64,000 bases of DNA from sequence record NC_070871.1, one strand, 5' to 3'. Position 1 is the stretch's first letter. The number at the start of each line of letters is the position of its first letter. The stretch comes from Escherichia phage PGN829.1. Below the pieces are notes generated by a model. That model did no database searches. It was not told the DNA's origin and was given only the letters and a program-made list of their open reading frames with translations. Of this stretch, positions 12,363-45,429 are shown one piece after another. Position numbers and translations under genes: made by a program.

Positions 12363-12677
12363 TCAGGATTGCGTAGCAAGCCAATCCAGATATTCTTCTG
12401 GGTCATCGAAGTATTCATTACCATCTTCATAGAACCAGTCAACCCAACGGTCTTCTAGTTCCATATCGACTAGGTCTTGGTCAGTGAGGGACTCATCCCA
12501 CATCTCAATACCGTTAGCATTAGCATAATCGCCTTTGACATTGTTCTCATACTGAAATAGGTCATAGTCTGCTAATGCATTCTTAATCTTAACAGCTTCC
12601 TGAAGACTGTCTGTTTCTACATGAAATGCCTTCATTGGCACTTGAGGAATGTGCCATACACGTAATTTTTGCGTCAT
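12363..12677 (-). CDS. acidic hypothetical protein
   Basis: 104 aa, strongly acidic C-terminal half. Confidence 0.35.
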   Translation of the reverse strand: MTQKLRVWHIPQVPMKAFHVETDSLQEAVKIKNALADYDLFQYENNVKGDYANANGIEMWDESLTDQDLVDMELEDRWVDWFYEDGNEYFDDPEEYLDWLATQS

Positions 12678-12685
12678 TTTTACTC

Positions 12686-12714
12686 TCCTATAAATACAAG
12701 AAAGCCCTCACAAG
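12686..12714 (-). terminator. intrinsic terminator (minus strand), moderate
   Basis: Stem AGCCCTC/GAGGGCT followed on minus strand by TTCTTGTATTTAT; downstream of the stop at 12743. Confidence 0.4.
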
Positions 12715-12742
12715 GAGGGCTATAACCAAATAAAGGCTACTC

Positions 12743-13576
12743 TTATTCTGCAACAGTAATAGCGATGGTTACATCGACCTTACCGTTGGTAACTACTACA
12801 GAAGTAGCTTCACCAGCAGCTACAGGTTTAACTGTTAGTACGTTACCAGCAATGGTAGCTGTAGCACGGGCAGAATCTGGAGCAGTCTTAATAGACAAAG
12901 TACCAGCAGATGAACCAACAGGCATGTTAGTAATGGTTACAGTCTTACCGGCAGCAGTATCAGCAGCAACAGACAGAGCCAGTGAATCAGGAGTAGCCAC
13001 CAGTGAGCTTGCTTCGTAATAACCTACAGCCAGCAGCGACTCATCTTCTACAGTGGTTCCATTAGCATCAGTAACAATCACTTTATAAGTACCAGCAGAA
13101 GCAGCGGTTACGTTATTAAGGGTTAATGTTGCAGTAGCAGCAGATGCGTTATCACCAGAATCAATATCAGTGAATACTGCACCAGTAGTATCAGCTTTGA
13201 ATTGCCATTTATAAGTAAATGGTGCTTTACCACCTGCTACATCAACATGCCAGTTAATGACTTCACCTTCGATAGCGGAGACTACACGAGGCAGCTTAGT
13301 AGCAATAGTCAGTCGTGGAGTAGCTTGCATATCAATAGAGATGGACTGCATATCTACGATGTTGTTAGGCCAGAAGCCTTCTTCAGATGGGTCTTTAGCA
13401 GAACGTTTATACAGCAGATCACGAACACCATGAAAAATAACTAAACTATCCGGGTAAGTGGCATCAGGATGTACAAAAGTACCTACTTCTACTGAACCAC
13501 CCGGGATAGAACCACTCGCATCCAGTACAGTTGCGACATTGGTGGTTTTGTTAAAACCTACTTTTAAAGTTGGCAT
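12743..13576 (-). CDS. Ig-like domain protein, putative capsid decoration protein (N4 gp17-like by position after RNAP II genes)
   Basis: ORF trimmed to in-frame ATG at 13574-13576 (MPTLKVGFNK...); Thr/Ala/Val-rich beta-strand repeats typical of Ig-like (Big_2-type) domains. Confidence 0.45.
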   Translation of the reverse strand: MPTLKVGFNKTTNVATVLDASGSIPGGSVEVGTFVHPDATYPDSLVIFHGVRDLLYKRSAKDPSEEGFWPNNIVDMQSISIDMQATPRLTIATKLPRVVSAIEGEVINWHVDVAGGKAPFTYKWQFKADTTGAVFTDIDSGDNASAATATLTLNNVTAASAGTYKVIVTDANGTTVEDESLLAVGYYEASSLVATPDSLALSVAADTAAGKTVTITNMPVGSSAGTLSIKTAPDSARATATIAGNVLTVKPVAAGEATSVVVTNGKVDVTIAITVAE

Positions 13577-13621
13577 ATGAATTTCCTCATAAGTAAATAG
13601 CAAGATTAGTATACATGACAT

Positions 13622-13652
13622 ATAAAAAAATAAACCCTCTGTTAAGAGGGTT
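13622..13652 (-). terminator. intrinsic terminator (minus strand)
   Basis: Stem AACCCTC/GAGGGTT then T-rich tract (TATTTTTTTAT) on minus strand. Confidence 0.45.
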
Positions 13653-13848
13653 AGTTGTTTACACAGTAGATAGCAAAAGCTATCCATCCTGCTATTACAA
13701 AGCATCCAAGTGAGTATGCTCCATAATAGTAGTAAGCAAACTTAGACTTGTGGGCACGGACTATTGTAGACAGAACCAGTACAGATAAAACTATCAGTAT
13801 TAGCTGAAAGATTACTTCAAAAGGGATTAGCATAGTTGTTACCTCCAA
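13651..13848 (-). CDS. small membrane protein
   Basis: 65 aa, two hydrophobic segments. Confidence 0.3.
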   Translation of the reverse strand: MEVTTMLIPFEVIFQLILIVLSVLVLSTIVRAHKSKFAYYYYGAYSLGCFVIAGWIAFAIYCVNN

Positions 13849-13851
13849 GCA

Positions 13852-13885
13852 AAAAATAAAGCCCCACTCCCGAAGGAATGAGGCT
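13852..13885 (-). terminator. intrinsic terminator (minus strand)
   Basis: 10-bp stem (two G-U wobbles) with CGAA loop, followed by TTTATTTTTT on minus strand; just downstream of the RNAP II gene stop at 13892. Confidence 0.5.
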
Positions 13886-13891
13886 AGTTTA

Positions 13892-15109
13892 TTAACTTAA
13901 TGCATAGTCTGTTTCGAGAATGTCCTGCCAGAGGCTGTCATCCAGCTTACCAGCAGAGAACTCTTGTCCCAGTACCTGAGACAGAATGAATCCCAGTAGG
14001 TCACTCTTAGCAATGTCAGACAGAATCTGGTTGTACTGACGACGTAAGTCATTACCGTAGTTAGGATGGCAACGGAAGCAGTCATGTACAGTCATTACAG
14101 GGAATGGTTTCTTAGGCATAGTATTGAGCATAGCCATGATTACATCTGTATCAACCAATGCAATCGTTTCTGAGTCCAGATAGTCAAAGATACGGGTAGA
14201 CAGGAAGCCAGACTTCTCATAACTAGTCCACAGTGTATTAACCATTTCATAGTTATCATCAGAACCTACCATGTAGTCACCAGTTCCTTCACAGAGGGAC
14301 TTAATATAGTTCACCTGGTTCATATCGAAGTTACAACGACGTAGCATCTCACGTACCACCATTCCATCAATAGAGTGGGTGATGTTAGCAGAGAGCATAC
14401 GGGTCTTCTCTTCAGTACCCTGAACCATACGAGTGATGTCAAATGGCTTACCTAAGAAGTTAACAGTCTGTACTTCTGGAACCATGACCTTAATGACAGC
14501 ATGGAAGTTGTCAGGTAATACCCATACGTAACGATTAGCATCCGGGTTACCACATTGCAGTAAGAACTTGTTAAGTGCCCAAGGACCACTTGCAACTGTT
14601 TCCATTACATTTTCAAAAGTCTTGAGACGGATACCATCCCCGAATACTTCTTTAGGTTTGGCTTCTGAACCGTAGAATGCAGTCATAACTGCCTGCTTGG
14701 TATCACTACGTTTAATACGGGATGCTTCCCCAAGGATGTCCAGCATCTTGTGATAGATAACTGTATAGGCATCACGACGTAATGGCTTACCATTCTCTCC
14801 CATGTAGTTAACTACGTTACACAGTTCAGCAGCAGAACGGTCACCAGTCAGGCAGGCCAGTAACTGCAAGCCTGATGATGTAGCATCCAGGGCTACGGCA
14901 TATCCGATAGGCTTACCAGCTTTCATATCTTTCCATGCGTTTATGCCAGCATAGAATAGTGCAGATTCTTCAGCTTCATCTACCAGATTAAGCAGGTTAG
15001 CTTCGTTCTCATCGAACCAAGCAATACGCTCATCCCAGGTCTTTTTATCCAGTCCGTAAGAATTCGCAATATCAATTTTTAAATACTCTTTCGGTGTGAA
15101 AATCTGCAT
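13892..15109 (-). CDS. phage RNA polymerase II large subunit (T7-like single-subunit RNAP C-terminal half; N4 gp16-like)
   Basis: 405 aa; DATSSGLQ resembles T7 RNAP motif A (DGSCSGIQ) and HDCF resembles motif C (HDSF); size matches N4 p4B. Confidence 0.75.
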   Translation of the reverse strand: MQIFTPKEYLKIDIANSYGLDKKTWDERIAWFDENEANLLNLVDEAEESALFYAGINAWKDMKAGKPIGYAVALDATSSGLQLLACLTGDRSAAELCNVVNYMGENGKPLRRDAYTVIYHKMLDILGEASRIKRSDTKQAVMTAFYGSEAKPKEVFGDGIRLKTFENVMETVASGPWALNKFLLQCGNPDANRYVWVLPDNFHAVIKVMVPEVQTVNFLGKPFDITRMVQGTEEKTRMLSANITHSIDGMVVREMLRRCNFDMNQVNYIKSLCEGTGDYMVGSDDNYEMVNTLWTSYEKSGFLSTRIFDYLDSETIALVDTDVIMAMLNTMPKKPFPVMTVHDCFRCHPNYGNDLRRQYNQILSDIAKSDLLGFILSQVLGQEFSAGKLDDSLWQDILETDYALS

Positions 15110-16946: not shown

Positions 16947-17125
16947 ACTAACCCCCTTACTTCTTTATAGAATTTAATAGCATCTTCCTGAGATTTAGGC
17001 TTAACCTCATAAACACAGTCAAGAGCTTGCTCATGGTCACGCTGTTCCTTCTTGGTTCGGCAATGACCACATTTACCATCCCATTGGGATACATAGCCTT
17101 TACCACATTTGCATTGTTGGTTCAT
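16943..17125 (-). CDS. small zinc-ribbon protein
   Basis: 60 aa; CKCGKG...CGHC cysteine pairs. Confidence 0.3.
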   Translation of the reverse strand: MNQQCKCGKGYVSQWDGKCGHCRTKKEQRDHEQALDCVYEVKPKSQEDAIKFYKEVRGLV

Positions 17126-17385
17126 TTAAAAGTACTCCATGGTATGGATTCTAGGTAATTAATTTTATAAATAATCTTACTTCTTATTTCTCCTCCAACA
17201 TCTTGTACATGAATTAGGTTTAACCTTTGTGCTTGGGTTATAGTAGCTGCGAGAGTTCTTCCCATAATATTTGATATTTCTATAAAAGATTTATCAGCTT
17301 CTACTAATAACTTTAAGTCAGTATTGTCTACATTGTTCCACTCTTTGGAATGGTTTTTTGGCTTATCCATTGGGATTCTCCGCAA
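17122..17385 (-). CDS. hypothetical protein
   Basis: 87-aa ORF, coupled overlaps. Confidence 0.3.
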   Translation of the reverse strand: MRRIPMDKPKNHSKEWNNVDNTDLKLLVEADKSFIEISNIMGRTLAATITQAQRLNLIHVQDVGGEIRSKIIYKINYLESIPWSTFK

Positions 17386-17743
17386 AATAGTTATACATAG
17401 CTTTTACGAGCTTCTCTTTAATAACCTCACCATGACATGGTTTCGGATAACAGAAGCACTGTAAGGCTAATCCTTTTTCATCTATTGCTTTATTACCAAG
17501 ACGATTAAGTTCATTCAGTACAACTGGATTCTTTCTCATGATTTGTTCATGAAGCCATACTCGATATTTGGTTATAACCTGTTCTCTTGAACCGTCCTTG
17601 CCAATGACAAATGGATTACCTAATGGTGAGCCACGTCCAATATACTCCCCTGATTTACCATGATGTTTATTAACAATAGTAATTGGACGAGCAGATACAC
17701 CCAGTAAAGCATTGGTGTCATCGCCTAATGTAATAGTCTTCAT
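17363..17743 (-). CDS. DUF4326-like protein
   Basis: 126 aa; YIGRGSPLGNPF and C-x-C-x-P-x-x-CHGEV motifs match recalled DUF4326 signatures. Confidence 0.45.
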   Translation of the reverse strand: MKTITLGDDTNALLGVSARPITIVNKHHGKSGEYIGRGSPLGNPFVIGKDGSREQVITKYRVWLHEQIMRKNPVVLNELNRLGNKAIDEKGLALQCFCYPKPCHGEVIKEKLVKAMYNYFAENPNG

Positions 17744-17746
17744 TCT

Positions 17747-18007
17747 TTATTTACCCTGAATTACTAAGTGAGATTCATATAGGTCAACCTTTGCAGAACT
17801 TACTACAGGAATTATTTCATCTGTCTTACTAATACGCATAGCAGAGCAACCAACCTTCATCCATAAGTAGGTATCAGAATCTTCATTTAGGAATCGAAAT
17901 ACATCACCATTTGCTAAGTCTTGAAATTGAAGCACAGGCATGGGCTTCTTCTTAATTACCTCTACTTTCATACTATTGACCTTTTGTTTTAAGTACCTGG
18001 AAAGCAA
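17747..18007 (-). CDS. hypothetical protein
   Basis: 86-aa ORF. Confidence 0.3.
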   Translation of the reverse strand: MLSRYLKQKVNSMKVEVIKKKPMPVLQFQDLANGDVFRFLNEDSDTYLWMKVGCSAMRISKTDEIIPVVSSAKVDLYESHLVIQGK

Positions 18008-18296
18008 ACACAGGACGTTTACTACGCCATTGGTTCATAGCTAGTTCACTAGTTTCAGAACCATCATGTAAGTCATAGATAAATGAGATTACATAGTCTG
18101 GTTCTTCCGGGAAGTTCTCTGTAGAGAATGGTAGACCAGACTCCTTAAGGATAGGAACTAGTGGAGATTCAGCATTGCAGTAGAGGGTAAACTCTTCATT
18201 GAATGCCTGGCTTGTCTGGGATACATAATCAATATTACGCATCATCTTATCTACATCAGTAAATGTAGAATCATGAACTACTAGAATAGTTTTCAT
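17973..18296 (-). CDS. hypothetical protein
   Basis: 107-aa ORF. Confidence 0.3.
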   Translation of the reverse strand: MKTILVVHDSTFTDVDKMMRNIDYVSQTSQAFNEEFTLYCNAESPLVPILKESGLPFSTENFPEEPDYVISFIYDLHDGSETSELAMNQWRSKRPVFAFQVLKTKGQ

Positions 18297-18547
18297 ACCT
18301 TCCTCAATGTCCCATAGATGTTATTATCGACAATACTCAAATCACAAAAACCAATCTCTTCTTGTCTCCCAGAGGATACCCAGATATTGTTTTCTGTTAA
18401 TTTAGGTTTCTTAGAGAACCCTATTAATGAGGTATTAGCACTTTTATATTGTCGTGACAATAATGCTATATACTTAACCCAGTGAGGCACTTGAATGGTA
18501 TGTTTCATATATTCCACAGTCTTACCTGTAGGATATGTAATAATCAT
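18293..18547 (-). CDS. hypothetical protein
   Basis: 84-aa ORF, 4-nt overlaps. Confidence 0.3.
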   Translation of the reverse strand: MIITYPTGKTVEYMKHTIQVPHWVKYIALLSRQYKSANTSLIGFSKKPKLTENNIWVSSGRQEEIGFCDLSIVDNNIYGTLRKV

Positions 18548-18765
18548 TTTTGATACCCCTGTATATAGTTAATACGACGTATACGTTGAGTAGATGCCTT
18601 AACAGCCATCTGTTGATTTTCTTCTTTATGCTGGTTTTCCAACAGCTTATCCCATTCTTTCTGGTTCCGTTGTTTCTGTAATATACGGCTACAACGCTTA
18701 TGATTAGCAACTCCTTTACGTTTGTTACATACAGGGCAAACACCATAATCAGTTGAGTACATCAT
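18544..18765 (-). CDS. small basic zinc-finger-like protein
   Basis: 73 aa; CPVCNKRKG...HKRC; chosen over the alternative-frame ORF 18522-18746 because it is coupled to both neighbours. Confidence 0.3.
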   Translation of the reverse strand: MMYSTDYGVCPVCNKRKGVANHKRCSRILQKQRNQKEWDKLLENQHKEENQQMAVKASTQRIRRINYIQGYQK

Positions 18766-18766
18766 T

Positions 18767-19012
18767 TTAGTTGAATCCGTAATAGTTAAAGTAAGGAGCC
18801 TTTCTGTCTTCAGTTGATTTGATAATCACTGATTCATCTAGAAAGTACATCTCATTATTAATACGTACTTCTCTGTAAGATAACTTACCAAAGTTACGTA
18901 TATATACCTTTCTAACATATACCTTACGGGTATGCTTTAGCATGAACCAGGCATACCCTTTGGGATTTACTAATATTGTTTTATCTACGATGACATCACT
19001 AAGATTGTTCAC
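18767..19012 (-). CDS. hypothetical protein
   Basis: 81-aa ORF. Confidence 0.3.
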   Translation of the reverse strand: MNNLSDVIVDKTILVNPKGYAWFMLKHTRKVYVRKVYIRNFGKLSYREVRINNEMYFLDESVIIKSTEDRKAPYFNYYGFN

Positions 19013-19313
19013 CGAGTGCCTCCATCAGTATTTTACGAATAACGTTAACATCAGATTCAGTACCAATTAAACCAACAGGTTTACCTGTACTATCAGTTAC
19101 AAAGCCAGCAATCCTTTCCATCTCTGCTGTAATTAACTTGTCACCATTAATAAGACGATTACGAAGGTAAGCCTCATAAGCTACCTCTATATCTTCTACC
19201 GTGGTTCTTTCGTTACGAGCAAATGGATTACTTAATGGGAATGGTAAATGTACCCGTATATTCCTGTCAGCTACTTTAGCTTGGTGAGGAAGTATACATA
19301 CTATTTCATTCAA
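18999..19313 (-). CDS. hypothetical protein
   Basis: 104-aa ORF. Confidence 0.3.
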   Translation of the reverse strand: MNEIVCILPHQAKVADRNIRVHLPFPLSNPFARNERTTVEDIEVAYEAYLRNRLINGDKLITAEMERIAGFVTDSTGKPVGLIGTESDVNVIRKILMEALGEQS

Positions 19314-19349
19314 GATTATTTCTCCTGTTTAAATACATATCTAACTATT

Positions 19350-19388
19350 CAAGAATAAAAAATAGGAGCCTCCTAATGGAGGACTCCT
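19350..19388 (-). terminator. intrinsic terminator (minus strand)
   Basis: About 10-bp stem AGGAGCCTCC/GGAGG(A)CTCCT with TAAT loop, followed by TATTTTTTATTCTT on minus strand. Confidence 0.5.
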
Positions 19389-19390
19389 TA

Positions 19391-19519
19391 CTATTTGACA
19401 CATGAATGATTGAAGGTAACAATCTTACGTACTGGTTCAGATGTCTTTTGCTTAGCAGCCAGACGTTCTTTCATCTTTTGTACGTCAGATTTATTACCTA
19501 AAATAAGTGATTTACGCAT
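19391..19519 (-). CDS. small hypothetical protein (42 aa), below ORF-track cutoff
   Basis: Own translation MRKSLILGNKSDVQKMKERLAAKQKTSEPVRKIVTFNHSCVK; AAGGA SD about 9 nt upstream; fills the gap before the terminator. Confidence 0.3.
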   Translation of the reverse strand: MRKSLILGNKSDVQKMKERLAAKQKTSEPVRKIVTFNHSCVK

Positions 19520-19523
19520 TATA

Positions 19524-19997
19524 TTAATCCTTACCATGATTAGAGTGGAAACCATATTCATTGTTAGCTAACTCTCTAGCTTCTACAGCTTCTTCGAAAG
19601 TGTTGAATCTACCTAAATGCTTTAGCTTACCATTAATCTTTATACGAACTCTCCATTTACCAGCTTCATATCTTACTCCCGTTGCACCTGACGTATTATT
19701 AGAAGCTCTACTTCTATTACGATTGTTATCTTGGGAAGATACTGCCCTTAGGTTTTCTAAACGGTCATCTGTTCGTATGTGATTGATATGGTCAACCATA
19801 TAACCGTCAGGCAATTTACCGTTGTGCATTTCCCAGATTATAGTAGCTGCCTTAAGATGTCGGTATTTTACTTGGACATATACATATCCACTGTACGTGT
19901 CGAAACTTCCAGCAATATCCCCACTTTTAGCTCTGCCACTACTAACCTTCCAGTAGAGTTTGCCTTCACGGTAGGAGAAGAGTTCATGCCAGTCCAT
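19524..19997 (-). CDS. HNH homing endonuclease with AP2-type DNA-binding domain
   Basis: 157 aa; YMVDHINHIRTDDRLENLR (HNH_3-type) and GVRYEAGKWRVRIKINGKLKHLGRFNTFEEA (AP2-like). Confidence 0.65.
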   Translation of the reverse strand: MDWHELFSYREGKLYWKVSSGRAKSGDIAGSFDTYSGYVYVQVKYRHLKAATIIWEMHNGKLPDGYMVDHINHIRTDDRLENLRAVSSQDNNRNRSRASNNTSGATGVRYEAGKWRVRIKINGKLKHLGRFNTFEEAVEARELANNEYGFHSNHGKD

Positions 19998-20190
19998 ATT
20001 TGGTTCCCATGATTAATGACTTACGCATGTTTAGTACTCCACATAAAGTTAAAAGGCTTGCTGTTACGTACAATTCTTACAACCATTTGATAGCCATTGA
20101 GTTGCACAACACCATAGTGTCGTTTCTGTACACCAGTGTGATATCTACGAAAGATACATTCTTCAATGGCACCTTCTATGTTAGTGAATA

Positions 20191-24659: not shown

Positions 24660-25349
24660 ATGAGTGAACTAACTAAGCAGCAGATTGTTAATGCCCTACC
24701 TGCTAACTTCAAAAACAGTGTAACCCAGGAGTTGGTGGACACAATTAACAACATTACCCAAGACCAACTGGTTGCTGAAGCATTCCGTGAAAACTTCATC
24801 TCTTACTCTGGAGTTATGAAGGAAGGTAAGTTTAAGACACAGGACTACATGAATGCAGTTCAGTATGTGACTTATAAACACATGGGCTACTCAAACAAGG
24901 AAGCCTACTTCAAGACATTCCCTAACCGACAAGCAGAACTTGTAGCAAGGGGAACCAGTGAGAAAGACATTAGTGCTTACGTGTCTGCTTACCACAGAGG
25001 CAAGCTAGTTAACCTCATCATGGAACAAAGTTTGGTTCCAGTGTGGATTGTGAACCAGGATAATTATCAGAAAGCAATCAACGTTCAGGTTGAACTAATG
25101 ACCACAGCAGCCAGTGAGAAGGTAAGATGTGATGCAGCTAACTCTATCCTTACCCACTTGGCTAAACCAAAAGACCAGGTAACAAATATCAATCTGGACT
25201 TAAGAGAAAACTCTGGGTTGACTGACCTCAAGGCAACACTTGCTGCATTAGCTGAACAGCAAATTAATGCAATCAATAGTGGTGTACCTACCAAGGAGAT
25301 TGCTGGTTCTAAACTAGTACGTGCAAATGAGGACATTACAGATGTCTGA
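24660..25349 (+). CDS. putative terminase small subunit (by position upstream of terL)
   Basis: 229-aa first gene of the plus-strand late operon; its stop overlaps the terL start. Confidence 0.4.
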   Translation: MSELTKQQIVNALPANFKNSVTQELVDTINNITQDQLVAEAFRENFISYSGVMKEGKFKTQDYMNAVQYVTYKHMGYSNKEAYFKTFPNRQAELVARGTSEKDISAYVSAYHRGKLVNLIMEQSLVPVWIVNQDNYQKAINVQVELMTTAASEKVRCDAANSILTHLAKPKDQVTNINLDLRENSGLTDLKATLAALAEQQINAINSGVPTKEIAGSKLVRANEDITDV

Positions 25350-26931
25350 GTTAATTAAACAGGAACTAGATGAATGGCTGGACCAGGTGGATTACTCCTA
25401 CCTTAATTCATCTAACTATGTTCCTAGTCAGTTTGCTCTTACCTTTGCCAACTTTATTAAGTTGGTTAATGGTAAGGAAGGTGAATCCAACAAAACACCT
25501 CCAGTTCACTTGAAGATGTTGGATAAGATGATTAGTCCGAACCAGTATGTAGTTAACCTGTGCTTCCGTGGTGCAGGTAAGACTGCTGTGTTCATGGAAT
25601 ACTTTACTTTATTCCTGGCAGTGTTTGGTCACTTGCCCAGTCTGGGTAAAGTTGAAGGGATGATTTACGTATCCGACTCAATGGATAACGGTGCTAAATC
25701 TGCACGTAAGAATATTGAGTTCCGATATAAAAACAGTGAGTTCCTTCAGCAATGGATACCTGAAGCTACCTTTACGGATAACCTGTTAGAGTTTCGTAAT
25801 GTAGAAGGGCATCGGCTTGGCGTTAAGCTGTTTGGTGCTAAGACAGGTCTTCGTGGTACGAAGATATATGGTAAACGTCCAACACTCTGTGTATTGGATG
25901 ACTTGATTAGTGATGGTGATGCTAACTCCAAGACAAGCATGGAAGCTATCAAGGATACCGTCTATAAAGGTGTGAACCACGCCCTTGACCCAACCCGTCG
26001 TAAAGTAATTTTCAATGGTACTCCCTTTAATAAGGAAGACATTATCATTGAAGCAGTTGAGTCTGGTGCATGGGATGTCAACGTATGGCCTGTATGCGAG
26101 AAGTTCCCCTGTAGCAGGGAAGAATTTCAGGGTGCATGGGATGACCGTTTCTCATATGACTACATCAAAGCTCAATACGATATGGCAGTTAAGACGGGTA
26201 AGCTGGCAGGCTTCTATCAGGAACTTATGCTTCGTATTAGCTCTGAAGATGAGAGACTGGTTCAGGATAGTGAAATTAGATGGTATAGCAGACAGCAACT
26301 GTTAAGGATGAAGTCCTGCTACAACTATTATATTACAACCGACTTTGCTACTTCGGAGAAACAGACCAGTGACTACAGTGTCATTTCAGTTTGGGCTTAT
26401 AGTTCTAATGGAGATTGGTTCTGGGTTGATGGTGTGGCTAATCGTCAGCTTATGGATAAAAACTTTGATGACCTGTTCCGTCTGGTTCAGGAATACCAAC
26501 CACAAAACGTTGGTGTCGAAGTTACAGGTCAGCAGGGTGGATTCATTTCACTCCTTCAGAAAGAAATGATTAACCGTAATGTCTTCTTTAATTTTGCATC
26601 CTCTGAGGGTGGTAAGCCAGGCATACGTCCTGTAACCTCTAAGCTGTCACGCTTTAACCTGGTAGTTCCATGGTTCAAAGCTGGTAAGATGTACTTCCCA
26701 GAAGAGTTGAGAGATTCAACTATTATGGGTCTGTTCATGGGCCAGATTAAACTAGCTACCATTAATGGAATCAAAGGTAAGGATGACTGTATTGATACTA
26801 TCTCCATGCTGGGTTATCTCAATCCCTGGAAACCACAAGCAGGTATGACCATGGTGGATAACAAAGGTGACCCAATGTGGGATGATGAAGAAGAAGATAG
26901 TGTTAACCCACTACGTTCATACATTGTGTGA
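25342..26931 (+). CDS. terL: terminase large subunit
   Basis: Trimmed to ATG at 25342 (ATGTCTGA overlap); Walker A-like CFRGAGKTAV, Walker B-like LCVLDD; about 530 aa with C-terminal nuclease-size domain. Confidence 0.7.
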   Translation: MSELIKQELDEWLDQVDYSYLNSSNYVPSQFALTFANFIKLVNGKEGESNKTPPVHLKMLDKMISPNQYVVNLCFRGAGKTAVFMEYFTLFLAVFGHLPSLGKVEGMIYVSDSMDNGAKSARKNIEFRYKNSEFLQQWIPEATFTDNLLEFRNVEGHRLGVKLFGAKTGLRGTKIYGKRPTLCVLDDLISDGDANSKTSMEAIKDTVYKGVNHALDPTRRKVIFNGTPFNKEDIIIEAVESGAWDVNVWPVCEKFPCSREEFQGAWDDRFSYDYIKAQYDMAVKTGKLAGFYQELMLRISSEDERLVQDSEIRWYSRQQLLRMKSCYNYYITTDFATSEKQTSDYSVISVWAYSSNGDWFWVDGVANRQLMDKNFDDLFRLVQEYQPQNVGVEVTGQQGGFISLLQKEMINRNVFFNFASSEGGKPGIRPVTSKLSRFNLVVPWFKAGKMYFPEELRDSTIMGLFMGQIKLATINGIKGKDDCIDTISMLGYLNPWKPQAGMTMVDNKGDPMWDDEEEDSVNPLRSYIV

Positions 26932-26937
26932 GGAACC

Positions 26938-27648
26938 ATGCAGAAATTATCGGAAGTATACCGTGGCTTGGCACTGAGTACCTTGAAGGGTACTGGTGCA
27001 ATCACGGATGACAGATTAGATATTGAACCAGATAGTAAGCCAGAGATATTGGCTGCTATTAATGAGGGGCTGGTACGTCTGCATAGTCGTTTCCCCCTTA
27101 GAACTAATAGCTGCATTGTGGAGATGAAGGAAGGTCGTACTGATTACCCTCTTCAATCCAAATATGCTTACTCCAGATTTACTAAGCCTACTCTTGAGAT
27201 CCAATACCCATACATCATGGATGGGTTCATGAAACCTTTCCAGGATGATGTTATTAAAATCCTAAATGTGTTTGATAACTCGGGTAATCGCCGTAGACTT
27301 AACGACGACTCAGACCCTCATGCAATCTTCACTCCTCGGCCTGATACTATTCAGTGTATGCGACCTCGACACTTCGAGGCACTTAACGTAACTTATCAAG
27401 CTAAGCACCCAGTACTTACGGGTGACGAAGAACAGGAAGTTGACTTAGCAGATACACTAATGACGGCACTTCATAACTGGGTTGGTTATCGTTACCACAC
27501 TGGTTTGAATACTCCGGAAGCTAATGCTAAGGCAGCAGAGTATCTGCAAACATATGAAAGCATCTGTGGTGAGGTTGTTGATTATGACCTAGCTAATGGA
27601 AGTATTTCAATTACCGAAACTAAATTTGAACAACGAGGATGGCGATGA
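26938..27648 (+). CDS. virion structural protein (N4 gp67-like by position)
   Basis: 236-aa ORF between terL and the tail fibre gene, coupled. Confidence 0.35.
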   Translation: MQKLSEVYRGLALSTLKGTGAITDDRLDIEPDSKPEILAAINEGLVRLHSRFPLRTNSCIVEMKEGRTDYPLQSKYAYSRFTKPTLEIQYPYIMDGFMKPFQDDVIKILNVFDNSGNRRRLNDDSDPHAIFTPRPDTIQCMRPRHFEALNVTYQAKHPVLTGDEEQEVDLADTLMTALHNWVGYRYHTGLNTPEANAKAAEYLQTYESICGEVVDYDLANGSISITETKFEQRGWR

Positions 27649-30600
27649 ACGCACACAACCCCTTTGATGCAAAACAGGATTGGACCAATCCATACTGTCA
27701 AAACAGTTCCAATGACCCAATGGTAGATGCACTACTCGGTAATGCTTACCATGTGGTTCGTACTGTGTACTGCAACCTGGGTAATCTTAAACTTCTGTAT
27801 GATTTCCTGAACCAATATGGGATGGTCATCGGCGTAAACTCTGAAGAGGAGTTGAAGGCATTATCCACGCAAGTTAAATACTCTCGTATCTATGGTTTCT
27901 CTCGTGCAGGTGACCGGCAGGTAACTGACTACTTGTACGTAGAGGGTGACCGTACAGGTATTCTACCCAACGATGTTGATGCAACTGGTTCATGGATTAC
28001 TGTTGCTACTTCTGGTTCCTCTAGTGGTGGTACTTCCTCTGGAGAAGGTGCTTATATTCCTTGGGTATACAGCAATGGTTCTGCTACTGGTGGGGAAACC
28101 ACAATCAATGTACCGGATGGTACGGTGGGTGTACCATTTATCATTATTAATGGTGATATGCAGTATGTAGGACGTGGTTTTGAGTTTGATGTAGACAGTT
28201 TGTCAGTAACTCTGGCTCAGCCTCTAGAAGAAGGTGATGAAGTGGTATTCCTTCTGACTGGAGTTCCTGCTGTACCAGATAATCCTAACATTAATGACTG
28301 GATTCAGATTAATTGGTTGTACAACAATGGTGCTGCTGTAGGTGGTGAGCAGGCTATTACTATTCCTTATACCTTCCAGTCTATTCCGGCTGTGTATAAG
28401 AACGGTCTTCGTTTGTATAAAGGATTAACTACTGAGTCTTATACTGCTGACCCGGATAACCAACGTATTTTTCTTACCGAACCACTGACAACCAATGATC
28501 GCTTGATAGTACAGATTGGTGGTGAAGCACGAGTATTAGAAGCAACGGATCGTACCATACAGGAAGTGGCTCGTGCGGCTAATGTAAAAGATTCTGAAGT
28601 TATTCTCAGTACTGATACAGTACATTCCTTGAATAACAAAAAAGTCATTTATAATCTTGATAATCAGCAGATTTACGTTATTCCAGAATTACCAACTAAT
28701 GTATATATATCCAGCGTAGCTGGTAATATACTTACATATATTCCGGGTAACATTCAGGTTAAGTTACTAACCAAAAAAGAAACTGACCAAATTACCCTAT
28801 GGCGGGATGCCGGGGATGTGCGGGGATGGGGCGCTAAGGGTGACGGAGTAACAGACAGCACTGCTGCATTCTTGAGCGCGTTAGCAAATCACAACAGAGC
28901 TTATGTCCCGGATGGTACTTTTTTAGTGGATACGACTGCTATTGATATCAATCTGGTTCATGGCGAAGGCTATATTCTGACAAATGCTGGCATTCGAATT
29001 TCGGTTCAACAATTTCGTCATCAGATGAAAATGGTACAGGCCAAGCTGATGGTGCCAAATTTCGGCTTTGACAACGGCACTACAGATACATCAATTTACC
29101 CTGGTGCAAGGAACGCTCTACAAGGAATAGCCGTCGTCGAAGTAAATGGGGTCACAAAACTCTTTATGTCGCAGCGTGTTGCTGGCGGTTCATGGACAGC
29201 AACCACACGTTGCAGAATTGTTGAGTGCGAACTGGTTGTCGATGGCTCTACAGTTCCACTTGTGACGTACTCAGGATTGCTTAACATTGGGCATGGTATT
29301 GATCTAACGGCTCGCATCGAGAATGGCGAAGTTTACCTTTATTCCTCACAGTCTGTTGATCCGGCCTATCCTGACGATAAGGCGGGTAAGGGTTACAGTC
29401 GCATTCACTGGCGTGGTTCACTGACCAGTCAGGCGGATGTTGAATCATTCGCACTGTGGGGGCAGGTAGGTAGCGGGCATCGTTTTGAGAAATACAACCG
29501 CGCCTGCGTTAAAATTTCTGACGATGGGAAATTTCTCATCATGGCCTCCTCGCCGGTCAATGCAGGGGCCAAGCGTCAGATCTTCGTCTACGACTTTAAG
29601 GAAGTACAGAACGCTTCGGACAAATTGTCTGTGGGACCTAAATACATTACCGAGTACTCGGTACCGAGTGAGCAAAACTCCAACGTTCTGCAGGGCATCA
29701 TGTCGGATGGGCGCACATTGACCATCAACATGGGTGGAACCGTGACCTTGAGTCCAAACTACATCATAGATGTAGGTTTCGACGGAACCACAGAAGTTCG
29801 CCAGGAGTACGAGGGTGCGCTAGACCAGTATGGGCTTTCTGGAATACTCAATAACCCAACTCAGGGCCATCCATGGCGTTTTGAACCAGAGGGAATCTGC
29901 TCATATAAAGGTGGGCGACTTGTCTCCATTGCAGAGGGCTGGTATGCAACTGCAAAAATAGTTTCATGGGAAGGGGCTAACTGGGCGTGCATTACGCCGA
30001 AAGATACAACTGGTGTCCCACCATCGAACGGTTCGTACTGGATAAAGACAACAAAGGCCGCGACTGAGGGTGCCTGGAGTTCAGCCGTCAACTATGCAAA
30101 CACAGCTGATTTCTCTCATGAAGTGAAGACTATCTACTACATTGGGCCATCACTTGGTTTGCCACAGGAAAAGCCGCTTACCAGTGGGATTAATAACAGA
30201 CCTGACCCGTCGCAGGTTCCAACCGGGCAGGGATCTGGTGCTACATCTATCGGCTTCCAGTGGCGTAATATACTCACAATCAGAGGATGGGCGGCAGCGA
30301 TAAACCGGTACTTTGATGCGTTACAATACGACAATTCATCGAGGTTAAGAATTTATGATTCCCAGGAAGGAGCTGACAATACCCAGTATGTATCAGTACA
30401 GGCCCTCTTTAATAGTACAATCAAGGCATTAATCCTCAGAGCGGGCGGCGCCAGTGTAACTGATAGTGCAGCCATGCGCTTACACAAGCGAGATGATCCC
30501 ACGTATCCTGGTTATATCGTAGAGAGCACGCGAGCAACTGGTGAGTTTTCCAGGGAAACCAATGATTCTGGGGCGACTAGGTTTGCATCTGCTGCTGGCA

Positions 30601-30818
30601 GTACGCCAGTAACAGCTTGCCGTCCCGATGATGGGATGATGTATGGATTCGAAAAAAGCAGGAATGTAAATCTCTGGGGGATCTATCGCGGGATAGGTTC
30701 CCCAGAAGGGGTGATTACGGCACCTCGTGGCTCTCTATATGTGGCAGCAACAGGCGCCCCGGCAACGTTATACGTTAAAGAATCTGGCTCAGGAAATACA
30801 GGATGGGTGGCAAAATGA
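27639..30818 (+). CDS. tail fibre/tailspike protein with conserved N-terminal virion-attachment part and GC-rich, probably exchanged, C-terminal receptor-binding/enzymatic module
   Basis: 1059 aa; GAKGDGVTDSTAAF (pectate-lyase-superfamily N-cap motif) at about aa 395; abrupt shift to GC-rich codons from about nt 28795. Confidence 0.6.
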   Translation: MAMNAHNPFDAKQDWTNPYCQNSSNDPMVDALLGNAYHVVRTVYCNLGNLKLLYDFLNQYGMVIGVNSEEELKALSTQVKYSRIYGFSRAGDRQVTDYLYVEGDRTGILPNDVDATGSWITVATSGSSSGGTSSGEGAYIPWVYSNGSATGGETTINVPDGTVGVPFIIINGDMQYVGRGFEFDVDSLSVTLAQPLEEGDEVVFLLTGVPAVPDNPNINDWIQINWLYNNGAAVGGEQAITIPYTFQSIPAVYKNGLRLYKGLTTESYTADPDNQRIFLTEPLTTNDRLIVQIGGEARVLEATDRTIQEVARAANVKDSEVILSTDTVHSLNNKKVIYNLDNQQIYVIPELPTNVYISSVAGNILTYIPGNIQVKLLTKKETDQITLWRDAGDVRGWGAKGDGVTDSTAAFLSALANHNRAYVPDGTFLVDTTAIDINLVHGEGYILTNAGIRISVQQFRHQMKMVQAKLMVPNFGFDNGTTDTSIYPGARNALQGIAVVEVNGVTKLFMSQRVAGGSWTATTRCRIVECELVVDGSTVPLVTYSGLLNIGHGIDLTARIENGEVYLYSSQSVDPAYPDDKAGKGYSRIHWRGSLTSQADVESFALWGQVGSGHRFEKYNRACVKISDDGKFLIMASSPVNAGAKRQIFVYDFKEVQNASDKLSVGPKYITEYSVPSEQNSNVLQGIMSDGRTLTINMGGTVTLSPNYIIDVGFDGTTEVRQEYEGALDQYGLSGILNNPTQGHPWRFEPEGICSYKGGRLVSIAEGWYATAKIVSWEGANWACITPKDTTGVPPSNGSYWIKTTKAATEGAWSSAVNYANTADFSHEVKTIYYIGPSLGLPQEKPLTSGINNRPDPSQVPTGQGSGATSIGFQWRNILTIRGWAAAINRYFDALQYDNSSRLRIYDSQEGADNTQYVSVQALFNSTIKALILRAGGASVTDSAAMRLHKRDDPTYPGYIVESTRATGEFSRETNDSGATRFASAAGSTPVTACRPDDGMMYGFEKSRNVNLWGIYRGIGSPEGVITAPRGSLYVAATGAPATLYVKESGSGNTGWVAK

Positions 30819-31024
30819 AAATGATGAAAGTTATTCGTGATGAAACCGGCGCAGTAATAAACATCGGCGAATGGGATTACGTTTATGCAGAATCTGAGCC
30901 GGGTAAGGGGATAGTCGCCACCAACCCGCTACCAGATGGATCAACGGAAAGCGAAGAAGAGGTGGTCAATGGCTGGGATGGCGGACTTTATGTTAAAGGT
31001 GATCCGAGGGCAAATGGGGCTTAA
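30815..31024 (+). CDS. small protein linked to the tail fibre C-terminal module (possible fibre assembly chaperone)
   Basis: 69 aa from ATG at 30815 overlapping the upstream stop (ATGA); shares GC-rich composition with the adjacent C-terminal fibre module; function inferred from position only. Confidence 0.3.
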   Translation: MKMMKVIRDETGAVINIGEWDYVYAESEPGKGIVATNPLPDGSTESEEEVVNGWDGGLYVKGDPRANGA

Positions 31025-31163
31025 TAGTTATTTTCTATACCCTGAATAGTAGACAGAGTAACTATTATGGTAACGACTATGGCAAGGATGCCAGTAATTA
31101 TAAACACGAAAATTCCTTAAACCCCTCTTCGGAGGGGTTTCCCAGAAAAACAAAGAGGTTTAC

Positions 31164-33050
31164 ATGAACGAATTATTCTCACAAGGTGGTAAAGGCTCTA
31201 CTGGTATTCTTACCAATAAACAAGCCATTGCCCGTAAGTTTGGTGTTAAGCAGAATGAAGTAGTCTACTTTTCTGTAGGTGTAGACTTGGGGGGTTACAA
31301 AGTCATTTATGACAAGACTACTCAGCGTGCTTACTCTTTGCCCGTACTCCCGGTAGGAACCACTGCTGTAAGCCTGAATGAACAAGCAATCCTGGTTCAT
31401 TCAGCAGGTACTGTTGATTTGGGGGAACTTGGGAAAAGCAGGGGGGAGTATACTACCCTACCTGGCACGTTCTCCACCGGTTCCATAGTAAATACTAAGA
31501 ATGACATACTCGTTTACAATGATACTGGATACACCTACCAGGGTGCACTACCCGTTACTGTAGCTCCTGGATCATCCCCTGTTGGGGATGCTAATTGGGT
31601 TGCTATATCCGACGCATACCTGAAAGAGGAACTACTTAATAAGTATATACACTATGTTACCCCGCAAGTATTTGGTGCTATGGGGGATGGTGTTACTGAT
31701 GATACTGAAGCCATTCAAGCAGCAATGGATTACTGTCAACTGAATCGAACTAAGTTGGTGATTCCATCCAAGAAGTACATTATTACTAAACCCTTGTTGT
31801 ATCGCAATTTAGGCTTTTATAACTATGAAATTGAAGGACAAGGTGGTAATGCAATTATTGAATTAACTACCTTAGCTAAGACAGGTATAACTGAGCCAGA
31901 TGCTTACGGGGTGGATGTTAACGTAAATGCTGCTATTGTTGTATTAACAGATACTAATCAGAGTAAGTATGCTCGTATTTCAGGTATTCGCTTTACAACT
32001 ACAGTCAATGCTGACTACGGTATCTATTTTAGTATAACGGAGAACAGTTACGTATCAGATTGCCTCTTTGAAGGTTATAAGTTTGGTATATTTGATAAAG
32101 GTTCATGGATTCAACGTATATCCCGGTGTATTGCTCGTAACTGTACGGATACCGGGTTCTATATCCAAGACGGTACTAGTACCTACATAAAAGAATGCTA
32201 TGTTGATTATGCTAATCGTGGTTACTACTTAGCTAGTGGCTATAGTTCGATTATTGATTGTGCATGCGACCATACTACCCGCTGGAGCTATGTATTTGGC
32301 GGTGGTTCCGGTGATAACGCTACTACAGATACCCGAAGCATTAGTATGCATAATTGTGGTTCTGAAAATACAGGAACGGGTTCTGCTATCTACATAGATG
32401 GTAGGGTTGCATTAGGTATTTCTAATTATCATGCGGGTAATTACCCTCCATACCAAACAGCCAATACCCCCTATCTTGTAGATGTTTCAAGTAAGGGTTC
32501 AGATTCTCAAATTACTATGAGTAATGTGCGATGTGTTAACTTCTCTTACCTTATTAATGATGCCAGCAGCTCTAATAACTATTTTGACCTTACTAACGTT
32601 ACCTGTCGTAGTACATTAACTGGTAAATACAGTCTGGCTTCTGGAACCAGGGTACTAGAAAGAACCAAGGAAGGTGGTGTACGAATCATTACTAATACTG
32701 ATTTAACTGGTATTGGTATTGTTGCTGGGGATATTGTGGACTCACTCTCCGATAACACCACTTTATCTGGTTTGCGTAATGGGCAATTCATCTATCGTAA
32801 GGGTATATCTATCACCCGCTCTACTGGTTCCGCTGGTAGTACTGAAGTAACACTACCTATTAACTTACTGGATTATCGTGTAGCCGTAACCTTTAATGGG
32901 GGTATTGGTGCATTGCAGAGTATTGCCCCTGTATTTAGCGTTACTAACCAAACCCCTTCTGGGTTTACGGTTAACTGCGCAAGTTCTCGTGGTGACGAAG
33001 CGTGGACTACATTAGGTGCAGATATTATTGTATATGGCTTGAAGCAGTAA
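31164..33050 (+). CDS. second tailspike, pectate-lyase-fold (beta-helix) depolymerase-like
   Basis: 628 aa; GAMGDGVTDDTEAIQAAMDY motif then repetitive Asn/Gly/Thr-rich beta-helix-like segments. Confidence 0.55.
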   Translation: MNELFSQGGKGSTGILTNKQAIARKFGVKQNEVVYFSVGVDLGGYKVIYDKTTQRAYSLPVLPVGTTAVSLNEQAILVHSAGTVDLGELGKSRGEYTTLPGTFSTGSIVNTKNDILVYNDTGYTYQGALPVTVAPGSSPVGDANWVAISDAYLKEELLNKYIHYVTPQVFGAMGDGVTDDTEAIQAAMDYCQLNRTKLVIPSKKYIITKPLLYRNLGFYNYEIEGQGGNAIIELTTLAKTGITEPDAYGVDVNVNAAIVVLTDTNQSKYARISGIRFTTTVNADYGIYFSITENSYVSDCLFEGYKFGIFDKGSWIQRISRCIARNCTDTGFYIQDGTSTYIKECYVDYANRGYYLASGYSSIIDCACDHTTRWSYVFGGGSGDNATTDTRSISMHNCGSENTGTGSAIYIDGRVALGISNYHAGNYPPYQTANTPYLVDVSSKGSDSQITMSNVRCVNFSYLINDASSSNNYFDLTNVTCRSTLTGKYSLASGTRVLERTKEGGVRIITNTDLTGIGIVAGDIVDSLSDNTTLSGLRNGQFIYRKGISITRSTGSAGSTEVTLPINLLDYRVAVTFNGGIGALQSIAPVFSVTNQTPSGFTVNCASSRGDEAWTTLGADIIVYGLKQ

Positions 33051-33055
33051 ATTTA

Positions 33056-33086
33056 GGTAGTGGGGTAAATTTAGTACCCCACTACC
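33056..33086 (+). promoter_or_regulatory. perfect 12-bp hairpin just downstream of the tailspike stop (no U-tract)
   Basis: GGTAGTGGGGTA-AATTTAG-TACCCCACTACC; candidate RNA-stability or processing element rather than a classical terminator. Confidence 0.35.
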
Positions 33087-33308
33087 AAACCCATTAGTGT
33101 TTGCTGATTCCATTGCTCTAACTGTAAAAATGGTTAGGGTAACTCTCCCCCATAGGGTATTGAATATATCCAATGATGCCCTTTCTACAAAGCACAGGTT
33201 TTGCTCGTCTCTTTGTCTGGATGTATTTCAGCATACTAAGTATTATCTAAGAGTCATCTTATGATACGACCCCATTGGGGTTCCTAACTTCGTAACTACG
33301 GTAATAAT

Positions 33309-33638
33309 ATGAATGAATCGGGTGAACTGCTTCTAGTCAGACTGGAGGAACGATTGAAGACTCTGTTTGAGAACCAGACAAGGGACAGACAGGACCGTGA
33401 GAAACTGGAGGAAACTCTGGGAGAACTACGGGATTCAATCAATGACATAGGTAATAGACTAAAAAATGTGGAGGATAGCTTAGCTAAGAATGAACCTACT
33501 ATTGAAGAGTTCATCACTATTAAGCATAAAGTCGTTGGTGCTGGAATTTTTGGTAAGTGGGTGTGGGCTGGGGCAGGTGCAATTATTGGTGTATTGGCTG
33601 CTGCAAGACGGGAGATATTCGCATGGTTCGTAGGCTAA
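33309..33638 (+). CDS. lysis-cassette membrane protein (holin/antiholin candidate), coiled-coil N-terminus and C-terminal TM helix
   Basis: 109 aa; C-terminal hydrophobic GAGIFGKWVWAGAGAIIGVLAAA; directly upstream of holin-like and endolysin genes. Confidence 0.35.
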   Translation: MNESGELLLVRLEERLKTLFENQTRDRQDREKLEETLGELRDSINDIGNRLKNVEDSLAKNEPTIEEFITIKHKVVGAGIFGKWVWAGAGAIIGVLAAARREIFAWFVG

Positions 33639-33883
33639 AAAGAAAGATTGAGTTAGTACCTAACTGGAAAAGATGCTGGAAGTGGGCATCCGTTCAGATT
33701 AGTACATTTGGTTTAATTTTATTCTCTGCTGTAGATATCATCCAACCAATGGTGACAGGATTACCTCGTCACATCCTGGAAGATATTCCCCATGGTTCCA
33801 ATATTGCAATCGCACTGTTTGCCTTAAACATCATAGGCAGATTAATACGGTTCCGTCCAAAGGAAAATTCTCATGAAAGCTAA
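33623..33883 (+). CDS. holin-like small membrane protein (two TM helices)
   Basis: ORF trimmed to ATG at 33623 (MVRRLKRK...); two hydrophobic helices; stop overlaps endolysin start. Confidence 0.4.
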   Translation: MVRRLKRKIELVPNWKRCWKWASVQISTFGLILFSAVDIIQPMVTGLPRHILEDIPHGSNIAIALFALNIIGRLIRFRPKENSHES

Positions 33884-34508
33884 ACAGAAACTTGCTGCAA
33901 AAGGTGGTGCAGTGGGAGGGGTTGTCGCTGCTATCCTGGGGGCAGTGTTCTATATGGAAGGGGGTTATGTAAACAATCCTCGTGACCCAGGTGGGGAAAC
34001 TAATCATGGTATTACCCAATCGGTAGCTAAGTCTCATAAGGAGGTTCTGGCTACTGAATATGGTTGGGATGGTTCTATGAAAGGTTTATCTAAGGAGATG
34101 GCTGCTGAGATATACATTGATGACTACGTACTTAAGCCTAACTTCGTAGCCTTCGCTGATATATCTCCTGCTGTAACGCATAAGCTGGTAGATGCTGGTG
34201 TTAATACTGGTGTAACCCGTCCGGCTAAGTGGTTGCAGTTATCCCTTAATGAAATGTCCCGTGATGGCAAAGACTACCCTAAAATACAGGTTGATGGTAA
34301 AGTCGGTGCAAGTACTGTTAATGCTTATAAAGCATTACAGAAAAAACGAGGCAAAGTTGCAGCATGTCAGGTAATGATTAAGCTGCTTGATGCTAAACAA
34401 CTAAACCACTATACCTCATTAAACATGCCAGACTTTACGTATGGTTGGGTAGCTAACCGAATAGGCAATGTGCCACTGGAGGCATGTAATGAAGATGCTA
34501 ATCTCTAA
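33873..34508 (+). CDS. endolysin, GH108 N-acetylmuramidase with PG-binding domain and N-terminal signal-anchor-like segment (N4 gp61-like)
   Basis: 211 aa; EGGYVNNPRDPGGETNHGIT matches the GH108 catalytic motif; N-terminal GGAVGGVVAAILGAVF hydrophobic stretch. Confidence 0.7.
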   Translation: MKAKQKLAAKGGAVGGVVAAILGAVFYMEGGYVNNPRDPGGETNHGITQSVAKSHKEVLATEYGWDGSMKGLSKEMAAEIYIDDYVLKPNFVAFADISPAVTHKLVDAGVNTGVTRPAKWLQLSLNEMSRDGKDYPKIQVDGKVGASTVNAYKALQKKRGKVAACQVMIKLLDAKQLNHYTSLNMPDFTYGWVANRIGNVPLEACNEDANL

Positions 34509-44892: not shown

Positions 44893-45429
44893 ATGAAACA
44901 ATATCCAAACTCAAATATTAACGTTCAGTGGAAACCTGCTCATATGGTTAATTCTGGCTGCAAATTTTCTACTAAAACCGAAGATGGTAGTAAGACATGC
45001 TCTGCATACATAAGATGGTGGGGTATGTTTATGCGGTGTTACAATCCTACCAATCCTGGTTATCCTCAATATGGTGCTAAAGGAGTTGTTGTTAGCAAAG
45101 AGTGGGGTAACTACCAAGACTTTGCTCAATGGTACTATGATTCCTGTTTTCTTTTAGGCATTGATCCGGAAAACAATAACTTCCAACTGGATAAAGATAA
45201 TGGGCCTGTCCCTGAGTATAGTCCAAAAGTTTGTAAACTAGTCCCAGTGTCTGACAATGTAGCTAAGGCTAATAGTAAATCACACTGGTACATAAACCCC
45301 AATGGTGACATTGTGGAAATCATTAATTTAAACAAATTCTGCCGTGAGCATGGGTTAAGTCGCAAACAAATGTATCGTTTGCGGGATGGAACTTGTGAAT
45401 CTCACCGAGGATGGAGGCTTTACGTATGA
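44893..45429 (+). CDS. homing-endonuclease-like protein (paralog of the 15111-15704 product) inserted in the late operon
   Basis: 178 aa; shares W..M.RC, F..W and LDKDN...P.NCK-like motifs with the 197-aa product; Cys/His-rich. Confidence 0.4.
   Translation: MKQYPNSNINVQWKPAHMVNSGCKFSTKTEDGSKTCSAYIRWWGMFMRCYNPTNPGYPQYGAKGVVVSKEWGNYQDFAQWYYDSCFLLGIDPENNNFQLDKDNGPVPEYSPKVCKLVPVSDNVAKANSKSHWYINPNGDIVEIINLNKFCREHGLSRKQMYRLRDGTCESHRGWRLYV

Follow-up and report, generated by a model that had tools for sequence, protein, structure and literature searches.

The branched tailspikes gp66 and gp63.1 of the N4-like coliphage G7C are the closest described counterparts of the locus reported here. In G7C, the N-terminal region of gp66 attaches to the tail and its XD3 domain docks gp63.1 (PMC8825819), and swapping of C-terminal alleles is documented in this system (Prokhorov et al. 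2017, as cited in PMC8825819; bioRxiv 10.1101/542787; PMC10408124). According to Babenko et al. (bioRxiv 10.1101/542787), the g66 swaps are bounded by a stem-loop, and the alleles match prophage proteins best. In the account of Pas et al. 2023 (PMC10408124), receptor-binding domains (RBDs) are flanked by conserved motifs and have been transferred extensively, with Gamaleya- and Lederbergviruses taking part. C-terminal gp66 swaps with prophage-like sources are already published, and a swap is expected for the genus. Here we describe a chimeric tailspike of this kind in a 64,000-nucleotide (nt) stretch of Escherichia phage PGN829.1 (NC_070871.1), referred to below as the window. Its primary tailspike, a protein of G7C gp66 type with 1059 amino acids (aa), is encoded on the plus strand at 27639-30818. 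An earlier note, made from the sequence alone, had proposed that the GC-rich C-terminal two-thirds of this protein, together with a small downstream open reading frame (ORF), is a recently swapped receptor-binding or depolymerase module. Our results argue strongly that aa 1-387 are the anchor of the phage lineage itself and that positions 28799 to ~31092, comprising an RBD (aa 388-1059) and a coupled 69-aa ORF, are an imported portable cassette, a reading that we hold with high confidence.

A sensitive blastn search against 5,426 complete E. coli genomes identified two chromosomes, those of strains PK5 (pig, Cuba) and EC19 (pig, China), that match the module at 96% coverage and 93.2% identity. 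Window positions 28799-31092 align with positions 12001-14294 of the PK5 locus in one gapless block of 2,294 nt with 157 mismatches (6.8%). The match sits in a P22-like (Lederbergvirus-like) prophage at tRNA-Arg/intS and extends from just past the head-binding domain of the tailspike to its stop codon, through an overlapping 70-aa ORF and for ~68 nt more (tailspikes WP_257188467.1 in PK5 and WP_416509947.1 in EC19; small ORF WP_108997140.1). Identity to the prophage stays at the random level of ~20-30% through 28798 and is 89-98% from 28799 on. On the right it decays past the small-ORF stop, with 49/68 positions identical in the noncoding tail of the cassette (31025-31092, plus strand), and is gone at 31093; this tail includes GGCAAGGATGCCAGTAA, which is present also in phage UE-S5a and in the prophage. 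The differences from the prophage copy concentrate at third codon positions (95/127 in the tailspike and 7/11 in the small ORF), so that both the tailspike module and the small ORF have been under purifying selection since divergence. The horizontal acquisition of a receptor-binding module with a cotransferred small gene, and its relation to enterobacterial prophage tailspikes, are thus borne out, but the number of substitutions speaks against the word "recent": the swap is not a very recent one.

The protein itself divides at the same place. In PHROG, aa 3-378 correspond to positions 1-376 of phrog_12242, a 1048-aa gp66-type family (E = 4.5e-266), and aa 388-1059 correspond to positions 135-799 of phrog_16355, a different family of 799 aa. 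Profile searches gave no match to the P22 Head_binding domain in the window tailspike, whose N terminus is the gp66 anchor. Among 50,697 phage records, none carries the module at more than 47% aa identity, the best (46-47%) being Lederbergvirus 683R2 and phage Gally. Neither megablast nor pairwise alignment found a Gamaleyavirus relative that aligns beyond 28845 within the module. On the prophage side, a GDSL-type esterase/lipase gene, identical in PK5 and EC19 (L001, 14443-15843; L015, 14443-15738), lies on the opposite strand 3' of the tailspike and the small ORF, in an AT-rich region (0.37 GC); 683R2 has a lysophospholipase-like esterase in this position (L013, 4618-5154). It is here that P22-like phages usually carry O-antigen-modifying conversion genes.

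Composition and codon usage change at the same borders. The GC content is 0.496 in 28795-31024, 0.428 in the whole window and 0.414 over the initial 1,156 nt of the tailspike gene. Among all windows of the same length (mean, 0.428; standard deviation, 0.0225), the maximum starts at 28801 (z ~3), and a blind maximum-likelihood two-breakpoint GC segmentation of 26000-34000 returned 28800-31019 (log-likelihood ratio, 19.9). GC content at third codon positions (GC3) rises from 0.326 in codons 1-386 to 0.468 in the module (Fisher p = 7.6e-6), and NNT codons for R/G/A/T/S drop from 75/125 in the backbone part to 71/279 (p = 4e-11). In the backbone, including the 5' part of the gene itself, CGT accounts for 75% of Arg codons, GGT for 72-79% of Gly codons (79% within the gene) and GCT for 57-58% of Ala codons, as against 29%, 28% and 26%, respectively, in the module. 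The GC-rich block and the codon switch inside the gene described in the earlier note are therefore real, the two ORFs are as it gave them, and its left edge at ~28795 is 4 nt from the homology junction. Its right edge, the small-ORF stop at 31024, holds for composition, whereas the shared DNA continues ~68 nt further, to 31092. What it had taken for an AT-rich linker before the switch is just the terminal part of the conserved anchor. Elsewhere in the window, an AT-rich stretch (0.36-0.375 GC) lies at 17001-20000, and a mildly GC-rich block at 45001-50000 (0.44-0.465) is the only other region near the top GC rank.

Homology mapping places the left junction at nt 28799, between codons L387 and W388. 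The homology that enters from the left ends at 28618 in G7C and U1G and at 28845 in UE-S5a, which carries an endosialidase allele. The homologies of the UE-S5a-type backbone and of the prophage therefore overlap in a 47-nt zone (28799-28845, plus strand) that encodes WRDAGDVRGWGAKGDG, and 28788-28856 is common to other prophage tailspikes at 81-95% identity. Judged from these alignments, a crossover could plausibly have taken place at the 28799-28845 motif. Backbone homology restarts on the right at 31122 in G7C, at 31142 in UE-S5a and at 31144 in U1G. A conserved, terminator-like backbone hairpin (31119-31140, plus strand; -14.9 kcal/mol, z = -2.1) lies here between the two tailspike genes; it is annotated as a repeat_region in G7C, relative to which it shows a compensatory stem change. 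A generic terminator scan missed it owing to its short T-run, and alignment and folding confirmed it. The string GGCAAGGA(T/C)GCCA(G/T)TAA occurs at 31080-31096, at the end of the prophage homology, and recurs in the intergenic region of UE-S5a (L003, ~6040) and in the prophage (L001, ~14282); it could possibly have provided right-hand microhomology for the swap. Most likely, the cassette was installed by recombination. The left crossover would have used the short RBD-start motif WRDxGDVRGWGxKGDG, which is common to many RBD starts, and the right crossover would have fallen just 5' of the conserved intergenic hairpin, a known swap boundary in the genus.

The same cassette is found on three chassis. 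An identical chimera is present in a large protein database (P0001); it lies on an independent contig of 72.6 kilobases (kb), and its 90% cluster has 29 member sequences. P0002 represents a third architecture, in which a module with 74% aa identity follows a P2-type tail-collar fiber N terminus, with the same left motif as the boundary. The contig concerned (L009) carries the tail region of a P2/HP1-like myovirus (Baseplate_J, Tail_P2_I), where a 69-aa ORF comes after the fiber gene and overlaps it as ATGA; the DNA homology of this contig to the window (71% nt identity) has edges at 28803 and 31018. By these comparisons, the edges of the cassette are the same in N4-like, P22-like prophage and P2/HP1-like contexts. 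The GC content of the module is 0.50-0.51 in all three, in contexts of 0.43, 0.47 and 0.55, respectively.

The part of the tailspike that precedes the junction (aa 1-387; 27639-28798, plus strand) is AT-rich, uses backbone codons and is 82-94% identical to Gamaleyavirus DNA, with 82.7% nt identity to the 5' part of G7C g66. Residues 1-378 match the solved N4-like anchors 9d80_D (E = 2.8e-149) and 9d83_D in PDB as well as CBA120-type XD domains (6w4q and 7rfo). The protein thus has the homologous N-terminal anchor and the T4-gp10-like XD2/XD3 branching domains of a gp66-type tailspike, and by homology to G7C, aa 1-387 would attach the spike to the tail and dock the second tailspike. Gp49 of Shigella phage B2 (9d83_D, 410 aa) aligns with window aa 16-376. 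In B2, the anchor homolog stands alone as a 410-aa protein and forms a complex with a second protein that carries the distal part (PMC11654681), and the fusion point found here therefore coincides with a gene boundary that exists naturally in a different lineage of Schitoviridae.

The imported module (28799-30818, plus strand) is laid out approximately as an N-terminal cap with a GAKGDG motif (~aa 386-460), a beta-propeller (~aa 465-785, nt ~29031-29993) and beta-rich distal domains followed by a C-terminal tag. Past aa 384-435, the module has no sequence match to solved structures. An AlphaFold2 model built from 20 homologs has a predicted local distance difference test score (pLDDT) of 83.7, except for the last ~70 residues, which score below 50 as a monomer, and aa ~465-915 match gp12 of Bacillus phage GA1 by tblastn (E = 2e-32). 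The model indicates that the module body is a beta-propeller RBD with a platform fold like that of phi11 Gp45. A beta-helix depolymerase tailspike was considered and rejected: the model shows no beta-helix catalytic body, and the pectate-lyase profile of Pfam touches only aa 394-500, at the N-terminal cap, barely past threshold. The depolymerase activity suggested earlier is accordingly unproven. Propeller RBDs form a recognized but poorly understood minority in enterobacterial phages and prophages, and their correlation with polysaccharide type is looser than that of beta-helices (PMC12491483). Because the core of the module is a propeller RBD and not a beta-helix, the swap would change the surface glycan that the phage recognizes. 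The O-antigen locus of PK5 combines wzx/wzy of the O28ac/O42 family with a CDP-glycerol glycerophosphotransferase and glf (L014, 5423-13735), which implies a teichoic-acid-like O-antigen containing glycerol phosphate. Staphylococcal propeller receptor-binding proteins (RBPs) bind wall teichoic acid sugars. More speculatively, the beta-propeller may by analogy recognize a glycerol-phosphate-containing O-antigen such as O28ac/O42.

The small ORF (30815-31024, plus strand) encodes 69 aa if translation starts at the ATG at 30815, whose overlap with the tailspike TGA reads ATGA, or 73 aa if it starts at an ATG at 30803. It belongs to phrog_33685, a family with no assigned function and 278 clusters at 50% identity, whose members are almost all standalone proteins of 58-180 aa, and it is predicted to form a compact all-beta fold (pLDDT, 91). 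The family tolerates accretions around a conserved core, VINIGEWDY / NPLP.G / GWDGGLYVKGDPRA: P0034 and P0035 (L022, 4001-4333) have a C-terminal extension of ~40 aa, YP..E.QLD.IYH....W......K..PK, and P0031 and P0032 have an internal insertion of ~30 aa. The ORF lies directly 3' of an RBP gene, usually overlapping its stop codon, in all 12 contexts that were compared, namely, the window, PK5, EC19, L009, IME11, KOX1, Trex_ER12, Adeo and four metagenomic contigs (L017 and L018 carry the same genes and were counted once). This arrangement suggests coupled, stoichiometric expression, and in the window the ORF appears from its overlap to be translationally coupled to the tailspike.

In all of these contexts, the upstream RBP ends in the tag GSPEG..TA..GS.Y...YVKESG.GNTGWVAK, which in the window tailspike occupies aa 1018-1059 (30690-30815, plus strand; GIGSPEGVITAPRGSLYVAATGAPATLYVKESGSGNTGWVAK). 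The bodies of these RBPs vary, being beta-helices or propellers in proteins of 430-1059 aa. Since the tag is constant while the bodies differ, the small ORF is tied to the C-terminal tag and not to the receptor-binding body. The ~42-aa tag forms the C terminus of RBPs or minor tail proteins of phages that infect E. coli, Klebsiella, Acinetobacter, Pseudomonas and even the actinobacterium Gordonia. No Pfam or NCBIfam model matches the tag, and a literature search for it returned only irrelevant matches. Homologs of the module body often carry Peptidase_S74 in place of the last ~20% (P0004-P0019), and Pfam found no such domain (PF13884) at the C terminus of the window tailspike.

We considered other explanations for the chimera. 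Junctions at short sequences common to several lineages can mislead assemblers, so phage reads might have been joined to host prophage reads in a chimeric contig. This is highly improbable, given that the junction is in frame within an intact 1059-aa ORF, that the window copy differs by 6.8% from the known prophage copies with a third-position bias, that the same chimera occurs in the independent 72.6-kb contig and the 29-sequence cluster and that the small ORF is present in a separate 71.9-kb contig. Nor do we give any real credence to a GC rise caused by the amino acid composition or structural constraint of a Gly/Ala-rich domain with no foreign origin. Amino acid composition does contribute, as GC content at second codon positions also rises (0.389 in the 5' part and 0.489 in the module), but GC3 and synonymous codon choice change as well, the second tailspike keeps backbone usage and, most directly, there is a sharp-edged 93% nt match to prophage DNA. 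The nucleotide-level homology and the change at synonymous sites already refute this explanation. Transfer in the reverse direction, with an origin of the module in lytic N4-like phages and its donation to P22-like prophages, is unlikely, although it deserves more weight. Composition does not decide the direction, since the module exceeds the P22-like prophage as well in GC content (0.50 versus 0.47, and 0.43 in the head-binding part of the prophage tailspike gene), and the polarized substitutions (62 on the window lineage versus 40) are uninformative on it. However, the synonymous codons of the module are unlike those of the N4-like backbone, and gp66 alleles have prophage-like best matches in the published analysis (bioRxiv 10.1101/542787). 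Moreover, the whole-length relatives of the module have P22-type architecture (phrog_16355, 799 aa; 683R2 and Gally, 46%), and among the Gamaleyaviruses of the phage collection it occurs in no other. For these last two reasons, a temperate-phage source is favored over a lytic N4-like one; the phage probably acquired the module from a temperate phage or prophage encountered inside an E. coli cell.

Several points weigh against parts of the import reading. As the left junction falls right where the common motif begins, illegitimate or microhomology-mediated joining is as possible as a homologous crossover. The module is compositionally foreign everywhere, so that composition gives no donor identity and the donor cannot be named. 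When substitutions are polarized with the P2-like copy as the outgroup, the window lineage has 33 GC->AT and 23 AT->GC changes, and the excess expected from amelioration is a nonsignificant trend (Fisher p = 0.14). The receptor cannot be read from the serotype of the lysogens: EC19 is without the PK5 wzy and carries an O45 S88-variant cluster, discordant with the O28ac/O42 type of PK5 despite near-identical modules, in keeping with the loose correlation of propeller RBDs with polysaccharide type. Because the O-antigen clusters of the two lysogens differ, no serogroup can be assigned, and specificity for O-antigen is not established. Finally, the tag occurs without the small ORF in Gordonia phage Sour gp22, Acinetobacter phage Loki ORF21, Pseudomonas phage C171 gp08 and the 46%-identical tailspike of Lederbergvirus 683R2. 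The ORF is therefore not universally required, and these four cases weaken an obligate-chaperone role for it. Two readings of the ORF fit the data, a facultative trans-acting partner of the tag and a hitchhiker in a conserved 3' block or recombination arm. The hitchhiker, with tag and ORF merely the 3' homology arm for RBD exchange or with the ORF serving an unrelated role (exclusion or antidefense), has a considerable chance of being correct, if somewhat short of even. It is consistent with the 71-76% DNA similarity that Klebsiella phages from several families show over the tag/small-ORF junction, with the dispensability of the ORF in the four phages above and with the lack of any family or fold match to chaperones of the Tfa/gpG and T4 gp38/gp57A types. 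It fits less well with an ORF that purifying selection has preserved in strictly lytic as well as temperate phages, that stands right after the RBP stop in every context compared and that folds confidently in the model. It is possible, and we suggest tentatively, that the small protein acts on or with the tag, as an assembly factor or distal partner. The more specific proposal, that the tag and phrog_33685 form an undescribed two-part distal RBP unit, an alternative to S74, in which the small protein would help folding or trimerization in trans or bind the tip, is rather doubtful. The same doubt applies to its corollary that the tag-ORF pair would double as a portable 3' end moving RBD cassettes among podo-, sipho- and myoviruses.

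With regard to the phage itself, a megablast search of phage records with window positions 26900-33100 gave 59 matches, each with a query cover of no more than 59%, and nearly all of the matches listed are G7C-like N4-like coliphages (Schitoviridae, Gamaleyavirus). The source phage is a G7C-like coliphage of this genus. The terminase gene (25321-26931) is followed by a backbone gene for a tail adaptor or virion structural protein (26938-27648, plus strand; Pfam SU10_adaptor, phrog_2125) that is homologous and syntenic to G7C gp67. Beyond the hairpin lies the second tailspike gene (31164-33050, plus strand; 628 aa), which is in the position of G7C gp63.1 and was not imported. It has a conserved docking N terminus (Tail_spike_N) and a beta-helix (Pfam Beta_helix, NosD and Pect-lyase), its composition and codon usage are those of the backbone, and it is 98% identical to phage U1G, in which the counterpart is annotated as several fragments. 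The right flank as a whole (31144-33600) shows this 98% identity to U1G, compared with only 82.5% for the left flank, which is closest to St11Ph5 and UE-S5a (91-94%). With flanks that differ in their closest relative, the backbone around the RBP locus is itself mosaic.

The locus presents an unusually clean case, resolved to the base pair, of a strictly lytic N4-like phage gaining an RBD out of the gene pool of temperate phages. The RBD repertoire of the Gamaleyaviruses is extended by a beta-propeller allele. The locus is of use for host-range prediction, and it offers W388 and the intergenic hairpin as natural fusion points for the engineering of chimeric tailspikes. The family of small proteins that accompanies the pan-phage RBP tag may be needed when such RBDs are transplanted.

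Among known systems, the locus is most like G7C gp66/gp63.1. It has the same order of terminase, adaptor, RBP1, hairpin and RBP2 (gp68-gp67-gp66-hairpin-gp63.1 in G7C) and an anchor with XD2/XD3, and as in G7C-type swaps, a variable C-terminal RBD has a conserved stem-loop as its right bound and a prophage protein as its best match. It differs in that the RBD allele is no more than 47% aa identical to that of any phage in the collection, in that this RBD is a predicted propeller rather than an esterase or beta-helix and in the presence of the small ORF, which G7C lacks. The left-junction motif is held in common with Lederbergvirus-type prophage tailspikes, whereas Pas et al. reported theirs only in lytic genera (PMC10408124). 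With the P22-like prophage tailspikes, the locus shares the RBD and small ORF, which are 93% nt identical and collinear and have the same ATGA overlap; those tailspikes differ in their P22 head-binding N terminus, their temperate context and the GDSL esterase and integrase downstream. The relatives by fold are Staphylococcus aureus phage phi11 Gp45 (5efv), 80alpha (6v8i), the P68 tail fiber (6iab) and NF5 Gp17 (9m7x), with GA1 gp12 related by sequence; unlike these propeller RBPs of Gram-positive hosts, the window protein serves a phage of a Gram-negative host and has another N-terminal attachment and other C-terminal domains. In many homologs of the module body, an endosialidase-type S74 chaperone takes the place of the final ~130 aa of the window protein, tag included, which makes S74 and tag C termini alternatives at the same position. 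A swap was to be expected in this genus; less expected is that a small ORF follows a tag-ending RBP in 12/12 contexts. Like the genes of tail-fiber chaperones, and notwithstanding the four tag-bearing RBPs without it, this ORF lies directly 3' of the fiber C terminus and is coinherited with it.

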